IMG/VR virus record: IMGVR_UViG_2563366797_000001
DNA from: a virus
Lineage: Duplodnaviria > Heunggongvirae > Uroviricota > Caudoviricetes
Strand: one strand, 5' to 3'
Length of the DNA stretch: 23,088 bases
A model generated the notes under the pieces. The model searched no databases and was not told the DNA's origin. It saw only the letters and a list, made by a program, of their open reading frames with translations. Both the position numbers and the translations under genes were made by a program. Numbering within the stretch: the stretch's first letter is position 1; each line of letters starts with the position of its first letter. This document shows, piece after piece, positions 3,145 through 23,088 of the stretch.

Positions 3145-3161
3145 ATTGCTCTAATAATTCC
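3145..3161 (+). promoter_or_regulatory. C1 operator-like site
   Basis: ATTGCTCTAATAATTCC, two bases after the glycosyltransferase stop codon. Confidence 0.55.
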
Positions 3162-3602: not shown

Positions 3603-3633
3603 GCTGGTGGAGTGCTCCCACCAGCATTTTTTT
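3603..3633 (+). terminator. Rho-independent terminator
   Basis: GCTGGTGG-AGTGCTC-CCACCAGC followed by ATTTTTTT. Confidence 0.55.
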
Positions 3634-4175: not shown

Positions 4176-4257
4176 TGATTTTTAAAACAGAGAAAGTGAA
4201 AATAAAAACATGCCGCAAGGCGCGGCATGTATCCAATCAATCACAGGAGCTGAAAAT

Positions 4258-19153: not shown

Positions 19154-20185
19154 ATGTCCAATTTACTGACCGTACACCAAAATTTGCCTGCATTACCGGT
19201 CGATGCAACGAGTGATGAGGTTCGCAAGAACCTGATGGACATGTTCAGGGATCGCCAGGCGTTTTCTGAGCATACCTGGAAAATGCTTCTGTCCGTTTGC
19301 CGGTCGTGGGCGGCATGGTGCAAGTTGAATAACCGGAAATGGTTTCCCGCAGAACCTGAAGATGTTCGCGATTATCTTCTATATCTTCAGGCGCGCGGTC
19401 TGGCAGTAAAAACTATCCAGCAACATTTGGGCCAGCTAAACATGCTTCATCGTCGGTCCGGGCTGCCGCGACCAAGTGATAGCAATGCTGTTTCACTGGT
19501 TATGCGGCGGATCCGAAAAGAAAACGTTGATGCCGGTGAACGTGCAAAACAGGCACTAGCGTTCGAACGCACTGATTTCGACCAGGTTCGTTCACTCATG
19601 GAAAATAGCGATCGCTGCCAGGATATACGTAATCTGGCATTTCTGGGGATTGCTTATAACACCCTGTTACGTATAGCCGAAATTGCCAGGATCAGGGTTA
19701 AAGATATCTCACGTACTGACGGTGGGAGAATGTTAATCCATATTGGCAGAACGAAAACGCTGGTTAGCACCGCAGGTGTAGAGAAGGCACTTAGCCTGGG
19801 GGTAACTAAACTGGTCGAGCGATGGATTTCTGTCTCTGGTGTGGCTGATGATCCGAATAACTACCTGTTTTGCCGGGTCAGAAAAAATGGTGTTGCCTCG
19901 CCATCACCCACCAGCCAGCTATCAACTCGCGCCCTAGAAGGGATTTTTGAAGCAACTCACCGATTGATTTACGGGGCTAAGGATGACTCTGGACAGAGGT
20001 ACCTGGCCTGGTCTGGACACAGTGCCCGTGTCGGAGCCGCGCGAGATATGGCCCGTGCCGGAGTTTCAATACCGGAGATCATGCAAGCTGGTGGCTGGAC
20101 CAACGTAAATATTGTCATGAACTATATCCGTAACCTGGATAGTGAAACAGGGGCAATGGTGCGCCTGCTGGAAGATGGCAATTAG
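19154..20185 (+). CDS. cre: Cre tyrosine recombinase
   Basis: 343 aa, MSNLLTVHQNLPALPVDATSDEVRKNLMDMFRDRQAFSEHTWKMLLSVCRSW..., matches recalled P1 Cre; sits about 420 bp from loxP. Confidence 0.97.
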   Translation: MSNLLTVHQNLPALPVDATSDEVRKNLMDMFRDRQAFSEHTWKMLLSVCRSWAAWCKLNNRKWFPAEPEDVRDYLLYLQARGLAVKTIQQHLGQLNMLHRRSGLPRPSDSNAVSLVMRRIRKENVDAGERAKQALAFERTDFDQVRSLMENSDRCQDIRNLAFLGIAYNTLLRIAEIARIRVKDISRTDGGRMLIHIGRTKTLVSTAGVEKALSLGVTKLVERWISVSGVADDPNNYLFCRVRKNGVASPSPTSQLSTRALEGIFEATHRLIYGAKDDSGQRYLAWSGHSARVGAARDMARAGVSIPEIMQAGGWTNVNIVMNYIRNLDSETGAMVRLLEDGN

Positions 20186-20202: not shown

Positions 20203-20219
20203 ATTGCTCTAATTCTTTG
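20203..20219 (+). promoter_or_regulatory. C1 operator-like site downstream of cre
   Basis: ATTGCTCTAATTCTTTG. Confidence 0.5.
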
Positions 20220-20235
20220 ATATTTATGGTGGCAT

Positions 20236-20547
20236 ATGAGAAAGGATTTCAACATCGACGGAAAATATGTAGTGCTGTCTGTAAGCACTAATATTCTGTC
20301 GCCATCTGTCATTGTCACCGTAAAGTTGAGCGATAGGATGCCTGATATCGACTCGATATCTGTTGCGTTCCCCGTTAAAAGCATGCGGAGTGCTGAACAT
20401 TTTGTGATGAATGCAACGGAGGAGGAAGCGCGGCGCGGGCTTACTAGAGTGATGGGGGAATTTGGCGAACTCCTGGGTAAGGTAAACAATGCCCTTTCAA
20501 TCAGTTCAGCAAGGTCCAAAGCGTTAACAGCTTCCATGATGAAATAA
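20236..20547 (+). CDS. Hypothetical protein (103 aa) downstream of an operator
   Basis: ATG with GGTGG upstream; stop immediately precedes an A-tract and hairpin. Confidence 0.4.
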   Translation: MRKDFNIDGKYVVLSVSTNILSPSVIVTVKLSDRMPDIDSISVAFPVKSMRSAEHFVMNATEEEARRGLTRVMGEFGELLGKVNNALSISSARSKALTASMMK

Positions 20548-20572
20548 AAAAAAGCCTGGCAAGGAGCCAGGC
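20546..20572 (-). terminator. Rho-independent terminator oriented for minus-strand transcripts
   Basis: On the minus strand GCCTGGC-TCCTT-GCCAGGC followed by T8; plus-strand side lacks a T-tract. Confidence 0.5.
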
Positions 20573-20679
20573 TGCACAAAAGAGCGGGTTTGTATTCCGC
20601 ATCCAATCAATCAAGAAGGAGTATAGCACACAGGTACTGAAGTGAAAAAATGTGATTCGCGAGAAACAAAATATCTACC

Positions 20680-20709
20680 ATTGCTCTAATTGATTGCTAT
20701 AATTTAGCC
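20680..20709 (+). promoter_or_regulatory. Tandem overlapping C1 operators (Op2-type) with embedded TATAAT; ref promoter
   Basis: ATTGCTCTAATTGATTG overlapping ATTGCTATAATTTAGCC; perfect TATAAT at 20698-20703. Confidence 0.65.
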
Positions 20710-20763
20710 GCAGTTTTTGTCAACTACGAAGACGTTGCCATTACTTCACTCCTTGACATCATT

Positions 20764-20789
20764 GGCGGCCATTAGGCCGCCTTTTTTTT
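20764..20789 (+). terminator. Terminator-like hairpin in the ref leader
   Basis: GGCGGCC-ATTA-GGCCGCC followed by T8, ending 5 nt before the ref ATG. Confidence 0.5.
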
Positions 20790-20794
20790 GCCAT

Positions 20795-21355
20795 ATGAAA
20801 ACAATCGAACAAAAACTTGAACAGCGCCGCGAGTGGCAGAAGGCAGCCAGAGAACGAGCGATCGCTCGGCAACGGGAAAAGTTGGCTGACCCCGCCTGGC
20901 GAGAATCGCAATATCAGAAAATGCGGGATTCTATCGACCGCCGTATCGCTAAACAGAAAGAGCGCCCACCAGCCAGCAAAACGCGGAAAAGTGCGGTAAA
21001 AATAAAATCTCGTGGCTTGAAGGGGCGAACACCGACGGCGGAGGAACGGACCATCGCCAATGCTCTTGGCACTCTCCCCTGCATTGCCTGCTACATGCAT
21101 GGAGTAATATCTGAAGAGGTGTCTCTGCACCATATCTCCGGTCGTACCGCGCCGGGTTGTCACAAAAAGCAATTGCCCCTTTGCAGATGGCACCACCAGC
21201 ATGCAGCACCGGCTGAAGTAAGAGAAAAATACCCCTGGCTGGTCCCTGTTCATGCCGATGGCGTGGTAGGAGGCAAGAAAGAATTCACCTTGTTGAACAA
21301 GTCAGAGATGGAGTTGCTGGCTGACGCCTATGAAATGGCAAACATCATGCACTAA
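20795..21355 (+). CDS. ref: Ref, recombination enhancement function (HNH-type RecA-dependent nuclease)
   Basis: 186 aa from MKTIEQKLEQRREWQKAARERAIARQREK...; C-terminal Cys/His cluster; preceded by Op2-type operators. The ORF track starts earlier at a TTG. Confidence 0.9.
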   Translation: MKTIEQKLEQRREWQKAARERAIARQREKLADPAWRESQYQKMRDSIDRRIAKQKERPPASKTRKSAVKIKSRGLKGRTPTAEERTIANALGTLPCIACYMHGVISEEVSLHHISGRTAPGCHKKQLPLCRWHHQHAAPAEVREKYPWLVPVHADGVVGGKKEFTLLNKSEMELLADAYEMANIMH

Positions 21356-21543
21356 TAAATATATTATTTTTAATCTTAAATGATTGACAACTGACAAGTG
21401 ACTTGAGTCAGAATCATCACACGCCCGGTACGGATGGATCCCTTTTCAAATATTCCATGGACGGCACAGTCTGAGTACCGGGCGCTACCTTCAGTTGTAT
21501 TGCTAAGCCGCCGCTGGTGGCTTTTCTTTTTTGTAGGGGCGCT

Positions 21544-21759
21544 ATGGATAAGAAAATATGCGTTGTTTCAATGAGCGTCGGCAAACCGGCGTCAATGACT
21601 GCTGCATGGATCAACAATGAGCTGATAATGGCTGAGCGGACCAGCTACCCTGAACGCCGCCGCGATATGGAACTCCAGCTGCTGCGCGAATTGCGAGAAA
21701 AAGAGGAAAAGGGTTTTATCGTGCTGGTGGAAGAGGAAAACAGCTTTATTACCGGTTGA
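21544..21759 (+). CDS. Hypothetical protein (71 aa)
   Basis: ATG with AGGGG upstream; downstream of ref. Confidence 0.3.
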   Translation: MDKKICVVSMSVGKPASMTAAWINNELIMAERTSYPERRRDMELQLLRELREKEEKGFIVLVEEENSFITG

Positions 21760-21777: not shown

Positions 21778-22046
21778 TTGCGTGATCCCTTCATGAACGG
21801 CAGACCGGTACTGATTGAAGCAATGCAGATTTACAAGGAATTGGAACGCCAGAAAGCGATCAAGTTACCGCGCAAGGAATCCGGCAAATACATCCTTCAC
21901 CAAAGCATCTTCGATTCCGAACATGACAAAAAAGGCGATGAATTTTTCAACATCAACTGGAGCGAAATAACGACAGAGCACGTTCTGACGTTGTTATGCT
22001 GCTTCGCAACGGAATATAACAACGTTGCAAGCGCCGACTACATTAG
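21778..22046 (+). pseudogene. Hypothetical gene truncated by IS5 insertion
   Basis: Open frame runs into the IS5 terminus at 22047; the last residues of the 98-aa ORF are IS5-encoded. Confidence 0.3.

Positions 22047-23088
<1,042 letters not shown>

Follow-up and report, generated by a model that had tools for sequence, protein, structure and literature searches.

Why should the spacer between two genes of a temperate phage hold two strong hairpins of the kind that end transcription, facing away from each other? The question is raised by IMG/VR record IMGVR_UViG_2563366797_000001, a 23,088-nucleotide stretch of DNA from a Caudoviricetes virus that was analysed whole and is called the window here. 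Its genes (cre, c8, ref) identify the window as a P1-type phage-plasmid; in the 1.3 kb surrounding the c8-ref spacer, identity is 99.5% with phage phiW39, 99.4% with Salmonella phage SJ46 and 94.6% with P1. Between 20500 and 20830 (331 bp) the identity with P1 is 99%, and P1 annotation was transferred by alignment (window coordinate = P1 coordinate + 18718). In an earlier look at the letters alone, referred to here as the sequence-only reading, the hairpins were taken as terminators of opposite orientation, and attenuation or structure-dependent translation of ref, as well as a short antisense or divergent RNA from the vicinity of the Op2 promoter, were proposed. As far as its sequence tells, the spacer carries two back-to-back promoters, each soon followed by an outward-facing strong intrinsic terminator. 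We propose that the rightward unit attenuates ref and that the leftward unit may encode a small RNA (sRNA), and we place the probability of this two-part model as a whole at roughly 0.6.

By their sequence, both hairpins, A in front of ref and B behind c8, appear to be real intrinsic terminators. Their grade was defined by a perfect stem of 7 bp or more, 5 or more G-C pairs in it, and 7 or more T among the 9 bases that follow. Four loci of the 23-kb window have terminators of this grade; 200 dinucleotide-preserving shuffles gave a mean of 0.01 and a maximum of 1. Hairpin A (20764-20781) consists of seven G-C pairs out of seven around the loop ATTA; next come T8 (20782-20789), GCCAT and the ref ATG (20795-20797), as the sequence-only reading had described it: a perfect GC-rich hairpin with T8 that ends 5 nt before the start codon. 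It folds with -15.0 kcal/mol, and its pairs have a probability of at least 0.99 in the full ref leader. With a G+C-rich stem, a short loop and U8 abutting the stem, hairpin A has the form of an intrinsic terminator for rightward transcripts, and no U-run follows it when it is read leftward. Hairpin B reads AGCCTGGC-AAGGA-GCCAGGCT on the plus strand (20553-20573), with six G-C pairs in the 8-bp stem and a loop of 5 nt; its energy is -15.6 kcal/mol on the minus strand and -15.0 kcal/mol on the plus strand. The A8 at 20546-20553 (+), which overlaps the c8 stop codon TAA (20545-20547), is a U-run on the minus strand only, and a G+C-rich stem-loop followed by a U-tract is thus found on that strand. 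On the plus strand the hairpin is followed by GCACAAAAG, with no U-tract, so hairpin B cannot terminate c8. The leftward orientation given to this terminator in the sequence-only reading was correct, and the coordinates 20546-20572 were right within 1 nt.

Comparison with distant Ref lineages shows to what hairpin A belongs. In elements of Salmonella, K. aerogenes and K. pneumoniae, Ref is 64-66% identical and the upstream genes are unrelated, with no cre or c8. The order there is a promoter overlapped by a C1-type operator, ~50 nt of leader, a hairpin (GACGGTC-T[T/A]CG-G[G/A]CCGTC), T7-8 and a start codon 13 nt on. Pantoea-type elements, with Ref at 57-61% identity, have an operator and promoter and then GCCGCC-TCCG-GGCGGC followed by T7. 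Operator, promoter, GC hairpin with T-run and ref therefore succeed one another in three Ref lineages, down to 57% protein identity and in two cases without cre and c8, while the hairpin sequences differ. The hairpin lies 13 nt from the start codon in P1, 20-21 nt in Salmonella/Klebsiella and 101-103 nt in Pantoea. When the leaders were aligned on the hairpin, 98.6% of cells were paired and compensatory changes were seen in three of the seven pairs, with U.G as an intermediate; the covariation score was reached by none of 500 shuffles. The shared order and the covariation suggest that the operator-promoter-terminator-ref module is a selected design that belongs with ref. By this comparison the hairpin A module goes with ref and is not merely the end of cre-c8.

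Within the P1 group the stem of hairpin A is no less constrained. Its cells are 100% paired in 25 distinct sequences, and substitutions in the stem are confined to C to T in the 3' arm; these turn G-C into G.U on the plus-strand RNA, where the opposite strand would have A.C. The loop varies (ATTA, ATCA, TAAA), with three of its four positions variable. The T-run has 7-10 bases in P1-group leaders with ref; the ref-less pO111_2-type plasmids have T6 and then A. A CU-rich motif that resembles an anti-Shine-Dalgarno sequence was also noticed a few bases 5' of hairpin A (20745-20754; ACUCCUU in P1); in three Salmonella/Klebsiella leaders (L188, L189 and L191) it abuts the hairpin as ACUCCUCCU, UACUCCCU or CACCUCCCU.

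From this anatomy, conservation and covariation, all of them observed, we conclude with considerable confidence that the P2ref/Oref leader with terminator A is a fixed, leaky attenuator of ref; the start sites of the leader, its termination efficiency and the mode of translation we infer from the same features. P1 mapping bears out the C1-controlled promoter that the sequence-only reading had assumed upstream of ref, since both Oref and P2ref align to the window. P2ref, repressed by C1 at Oref, would make a leader of ~80 nt, and most P2ref transcripts would be expected to stop at terminator A, which ends 5 nt short of the ref start codon. The attenuator would in this way scale down a strong repressor-controlled promoter and keep the toxic nuclease Ref low even after derepression. 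Only read-through RNAs would encode Ref, to which transcripts from the weak internal promoter P1ref might add. A purine-rich Shine-Dalgarno sequence is absent from the 20 nt 5' of the ref ATG in the window and in 35 natural leader variants, as the sequence-only reading had remarked for the window, and no fold pairs the ref AUG or the A-rich codons after it; translation of Ref would then begin, with no Shine-Dalgarno sequence, in an A/U-rich, unstructured start region. The start codon itself is backed by an N-terminus kept in distant lineages (MKTIEQ vs MKLTEEQ). The leader (20710-20794) has no ATG or GTG and no Shine-Dalgarno sequence, so it is not a leader-peptide attenuator.

Attenuation of ref is not a new idea. 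To judge by the title of Windle, Laufer & Hays 1988, which speaks of 'attenuator-antiterminator control' of P1 ref, an attenuator was proposed for the same sequence at that time, and the cross-lineage covariation now adds to the support for it. After C1 inactivation, ref mRNA rises 73-fold, lower and later than that of ssb, dmt and kilA (PMC4713147), a pattern compatible with a leaky terminator A. Ref is a RecA-dependent nuclease; it reduces lysogenisation 40-fold and makes lysogens more sensitive to ciprofloxacin (PMC4713147). Since Ref damages the host, the leader terminator can be seen as part of the circuit that keeps it quiet. An H-NS site, CGATAAA, was reported upstream of P1 ref in the same paper; it reads CGAGAAA in the window (20661-20667), and the G at 20663 is a minor allele found in ~9% of distinct sequences among relatives.

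For hairpin B, the question is what leftward transcript it could end. The extended -10 element TGTGcTATACT lies ~40 nt upstream of it in the correct orientation, back-to-back with P2ref. No other full TRTGn match exists in the whole window, on either strand, and by chance 0.002-0.012 such matches would be expected in the 80 nt upstream of hairpin B. The element is kept in all 32 variants of the leftward unit. Among 79 distinct sequences, the 9 core columns show no polymorphism, whereas 5 of the 7 discriminator columns, 12 of the 14 spacer columns and all 6 of the -35 vary; a variable -35 is expected, as the promoter is of the extended -10 type. No C1 operator was found at the leftward promoter at up to three mismatches. 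With the start placed 7-8 nt downstream of the -10 box, an RNA of ~66 nt is predicted. Its body is nearly invariant, and the segment 20515-20631 varies far less than the c8 coding sequence (CDS) to its left. A 121-nt fold of the leftward unit has z = -3.16, and a small internal hairpin is found in the predicted RNA. The stem of hairpin B, 100% paired, is invariant but for a single substitution, which leaves U.G on the minus RNA and makes C.A on the plus RNA; the loop varies (AAGGA/AAGAG/AAGAT/AAGTA on the plus strand). Across the 32 variants the length of the U-run ranges from 5 to 9; this polymorphism, which at 20546-20553 affects the c8 stop and the terminator B U-tail together, could modulate termination efficiency.

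The predicted RNA has no conserved open reading frame (ORF). The sequence-only reading held that there is no minus-strand gene here to terminate, and this stands: the only frame across hairpin B on that strand is one of 42 amino acids (20629-20501), broken by the A-run of 5-9. Its hydrophobic product was considered as a small toxin and rejected, with the A-run polymorphism shifting the frame and terminator B lying inside it. At the level of sequence the RNA looks like an sRNA gene, with its own promoter, a terminator ~40 nt on and no conserved ORF. The alternatives that had been offered, an antisense or a divergent RNA, fared differently. The divergent one is favoured by the conserved extended -10 element back-to-back with P2ref, whereas a cis-antisense RNA overlaps a gene on the opposite strand and the predicted RNA overlaps the c8 stop codon only. 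In Rfam at permissive E-values, only terminator-shaped matches below the gathering threshold were obtained (bits/threshold: suhB/mmgR, RF00519, 22.9/41; SorX, RF02784, 22.6/46.6; MicX 19.7/75; GcvB 18.3/42). The RNA is not annotated in the P1, P7 and phiW39 records; the P1 record lists terminators in neither of the regions sampled, so missing terminator annotation is uninformative. A P1 transcript map or a P1-plasmid sRNA was not found in the literature searched. The unit of terminator B and leftward promoter, searched alone, is present in 695 of 5,426 complete E. coli genomes (~13%) at 92.8% identity or more; a search of these genomes aimed at copies outside P1-type elements found none below 92.8%.

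Hairpin B most likely ends an unannotated, and as yet unproven, RNA of ~66 nt from the leftward promoter. That the leftward unit as a whole, conserved promoter plus terminator B, yields such an RNA (~20612 to 20547) we regard as evenly balanced: the signals and their selective conservation are observed, and production of the RNA and any role are predictions drawn from them. The leftward promoter, with no C1 operator, would fire away from ref, and terminator B would end the RNA after ~66 nt at the c8 stop. Such a product would be non-coding and small, and could pair with a 3' untranslated extension of cre-c8 transcripts, provided that this extension is transcribed. Terminator B might also shield c8 and cre from other leftward transcription. 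The features of the locus are collected in Table 1.

Table 1. Coordinates of genes, promoters, operator, terminators and predicted transcripts at the c8-ref locus of the window.
Feature	Position	Strand	Basis
cre (Cre)	19154-20185	+	ORF list
c8 CDS, 103 amino acids, putative lysogeny-establishment protein	20236-20547	+	ORF; P1, phiW39 and P7 annotation
Terminator B, 8-bp stem 20553-20573, loop UCCUU, then U7-8	20546-20573	-	Scan, fold, variants
Predicted leftward RNA, ~66 nt, 5' (U)GAUUGAUUGGAUGCGGAAUACAAACCCGCUCUUUUGUGC, hairpin B, U-run	20546-20613	-	Signals, fold
Extended -10 element TGTGcTATACT (TRTGn + TATACT)	20620-20630	-	Scan, conservation
Weak -35-like TTTTCA, 17-bp spacer	20643-20648	-	Scan; varied among relatives
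P2ref, -35 20675-20680, extended -10 TGcTATAAT (TATAAT 20698-20703)	20675-20703	+	P1 annotation
Oref, C1 operator overlapping P2ref	20680-20696	+	P1 annotation; pattern search, 3 mismatches
ref leader from P2ref, probable start near 20710	20710-20794	+	Sequence, folds, variants
P1ref, predicted promoter, -35 TTGCCA 20735-20740, extended -10 TGaCATCAT (CATCAT 20757-20762)	20735-20762	+	P1 annotation, scan
Terminator A (probable ref attenuator), GGCGGCC-AUUA-GGCCGCC + U8	20764-20789	+	Scan, fold, covariation
ref CDS, 186 amino acids, RecA-dependent HNH nuclease, PF16786	20795-21355	+	ORF, annotation, homologues

Several points weigh against the two-part model. Where transcripts start, how efficiently they terminate and whether the leftward RNA exists are all deduced from the DNA. 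The covariation alignment was fitted to the hairpin and holds ~3 independent lineages, whose hairpins may not be positionally homologous. Several Ref lineages (L192, L195, L177-L187) have no leader terminator at all, so the hairpin is not essential to ref. The leftward unit has no relatives beyond ~88% DNA identity, and there are no compensatory double changes to see in hairpin B because C8 has no distant homologues below 78% identity. That 20515-20631 hardly varies may be due in part to recent common ancestry or to a recombination block; homology break-points at the edges of the conserved island (H83, H100) were examined and set aside as uninformative, being insertion sequence (IS) insertions. 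In the small inner helix, one substitution out of two is in favour of the plus strand. When both short RNAs were compared with 92 P1 start regions under shuffled-query controls, no significant trans target was found (p ~0.10 and 0.81); the best leftward duplex, with ban (p ~0.10), lay inside the shuffled distribution, the duplex energies being crude.

The alternative that survives best, though we think it somewhat doubtful, concerns hairpin B: terminator B may be a backstop for long leftward transcripts arriving from the right, and not the end of an sRNA. A minus-strand promoter-like site (TTGTCA-16-AATAAT, 21390-21363, 10/12 match) lies beside the mat operator and could give an antisense-ref RNA of ~0.8 kb ending at hairpin B, as there is no minus-strand terminator in between and hairpin A is not followed by U when read leftward. 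In pO111_2-type plasmids, moreover, a leftward icd-ant operon ends just to the right of hairpin A and could be another source of such transcripts. However, the site at 21390-21363 and the plus-strand Pmat have their -35 in common, and since the reverse complement of the Pmat TTGACA is also -35-like, the site may be a by-product; a backstop also leaves the invariance of TGTGcTATACT amid varied flanks unexplained. The two roles can coexist, and a terminator B that ends the predicted sRNA could serve as a backstop as well.

It is unlikely that terminator A is primarily a terminator or insulator of cre-c8 and stands before ref by accident, though several observations speak for such a role. The window scan found no plus-strand terminator of c8's own before 20764, only a weak terminator-like site inside c8; with cre-c8 lacking its own terminator, terminator A would also block cre-c8 read-through in P1. 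The hairpin is also kept where ref is missing. In pO111_2 and an E. albertii plasmid, a convergent icd/antirepressor operon (Icd-like/KilAC) takes the place of ref, and Oref, P2ref, the leader and hairpin A are retained, with the stop codon of the operon abutting the hairpin A T-run (L002 1781-1810; L005 about 1780-1810). By their sequence, the P2ref unit of such pO111_2-type ref-less plasmids can yield only a short terminated RNA. This Icd-like/KilAC-antirepressor operon resembles a second immI-like module. Against a primary role in cre-c8 termination, the lineages without cre and c8 keep an equivalent hairpin between operator-promoter and ref, and p12579_1 and pBL12EC2, which keep Oref/P2ref and have different cargo after P2ref, have lost hairpin A. 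Since insulation of cre-c8 and attenuation of ref are not mutually exclusive, the former can be added to the latter.

A regulated form of attenuation, in which an alternative leader fold or a lytic phage factor lets polymerase pass terminator A, is suggested by the 1988 title and by the late induction peak of ref relative to other C1-controlled genes (PMC4713147), yet we consider it improbable. A candidate antiterminator helix of 7 bp does exist: in the nascent leader GUUGCCA (20734-20740) can pair with the 5' arm of hairpin A, UGGCGGC (20763-20769). At equilibrium, however, terminator A beats this pairing by 8.5 kcal/mol, natural variation in the helix only breaks pairs without compensation, 30% of shuffled P1 leaders sequester the 5' arm equally well, and the Pantoea leader has no comparable partner. 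On these grounds an antiterminator intrinsic to the RNA is not supported. The leader has no peptide-coding potential either, and we know of no antiterminator protein described for P1.

A fixed attenuator also has to be weighed against the reading, to which we give a similarly low chance, that ref mRNA comes mainly from P1ref, with a start inside hairpin A, and that P2ref RNAs essentially all terminate as a short C1-controlled RNA. P1ref is predicted in the P1 annotation and was matched by our scan with a TG extension; its TGA-ATCAT is invariant in the P1 group. Its start would fall in the 5' arm of hairpin A, and folding indicates that RNAs starting at 20768-20770 cannot form terminator A, with only a 4-bp stub left for a start at 20767. 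The persistence of the P2ref-leader-hairpin unit without ref in some plasmids fits this reading too. Against it, P1ref has a poor -10 (CATCAT), is not conserved in the Salmonella/Klebsiella lineage and has no overlapping C1 operator, although ref is C1-controlled and strongly induced. Taking both short transcripts as RNAs in their own right, one could picture a divergent two-RNA regulatory locus, in which a constitutive sRNA of ~66 nt and the C1-controlled ref leader of ~80 nt, either or both, act as riboregulators of cre, c8, ref or host genes in the lysis-lysogeny decision; this we offer as a long shot.

Structure-dependent translation of ref, the second proposal of the sequence-only reading, found no support. 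Hairpin A, at -31 to -14 from the AUG, does lie within the 30S footprint, where it could limit or position the ribosome on an mRNA that lacks a Shine-Dalgarno sequence in every variant. However, the stem ends 13 nt before the AUG and excludes it, the AUG and its A-rich codons stay unpaired, the spacing in Salmonella/Klebsiella and Pantoea differs as given above, and the T-run is always retained, the mark of a terminator and not of a translational operator; a translational role is very improbable. Just as poor a chance is given to hairpin B as a 3' end or stabiliser of c8 mRNA on the plus strand, for although it begins 6 nt past the c8 stop, is just as well folded on that strand and has the one inner-helix substitution in its favour, the homopolymer is on the wrong side and the sole stem substitution makes a C.A mismatch there.

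Taken with these alternatives, the fixed attenuator of ref remains the preferred reading of the rightward unit. The attenuator was already known, and what is new here is the cross-lineage covariation and the ref-less variants; with the comparison, what was proposed for a single phage in 1988 becomes a design conserved in three lineages, each with its own hairpin sequence in an unchanged order. The leftward RNA, if expressed, would be a second small RNA besides c4 in one of the best-studied temperate phages, encoded in a unit that adjoins Cre, whose gene is used throughout genetics. If it is not expressed, the finding is an ordinary one, two good terminators that insulate neighbouring units.

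Some features of the surroundings deserve mention. Between cre and c8, 17 nt 5' of the c8 ATG, lies ATTGCTCTAATTCTTTG (20203-20219), which shares the ATTGCTCTAATTnnTTG form with Oref and has four mismatches to the C1 operator consensus. It is found in most P1-type relatives and is absent from P1 and P7; going by these matches, it could be a C1 operator, so far unannotated, through which c8 is controlled in the window's lineage. On the other side of ref, the mat promoters Pmat/LPmat map to 21384-21414. Downstream of them, at 21505-21532, is a terminator-like hairpin, AAGCCGCC-GCT-GGTGGCTT, then TTCTTTTTT; it is upstream of an alternative mat start at 21545 (record OP279344) and would make a second promoter-hairpin-gene arrangement beside ref. 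The mat reading frame seems split (ORFs 21434-21574, 21517-21759 and 21778-22074), and from ~22043 to the window end (23088) there is an IS5 copy with 99% identity to the IS5 of other records. The remaining two terminators of the grade of hairpins A and B, 3604-3632 (+) and 4209-4229 (-), lie near C1 operator-like sites at 3145, 3194 and 4159.

Among known systems, the P1 ref attenuator of 1988, as far as that source could be compared, is the same element as the window's: operator, promoters, hairpin and ref start are the same and nothing structural differs. The lambda PR'-tR' 6S RNA and StxS of Stx phages (PMC7547250), to the extent that they are described there, resemble the ref unit in having a phage promoter, a short leader and a strong terminator, so that a short RNA is made by default and genes further on depend on read-through. 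Lambdoid late operons, however, have a dedicated Q antiterminator loaded at the promoter, whereas no such factor or site is known or was found at the ref locus, where the promoter itself is repressor-controlled. The trp, his and T-box attenuators likewise have an intrinsic terminator between promoter and start codon; in contrast to these, neither a leader ORF nor a conserved alternative fold nor an Rfam family was found for the ref leader.

A known small RNA of the same phage is the c4 antisense RNA, which is encoded in the P1 immI operon. Mention of it is made in PMC8201110. Like c4, the predicted leftward RNA would be a small regulatory RNA of P1; unlike c4, it lies in a region, c8-ref, for which no C4-family match was reported in Rfam. 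In enterobacteria, oxyS next to oxyR and gcvB next to gcvA are stand-alone sRNA genes divergent from a regulated promoter. It is this type that the leftward unit, as read from its sequence, appears to share: a predicted sigma-70 promoter, a non-coding body of ~65 nt, a small internal hairpin and a terminator with a long U-tail.

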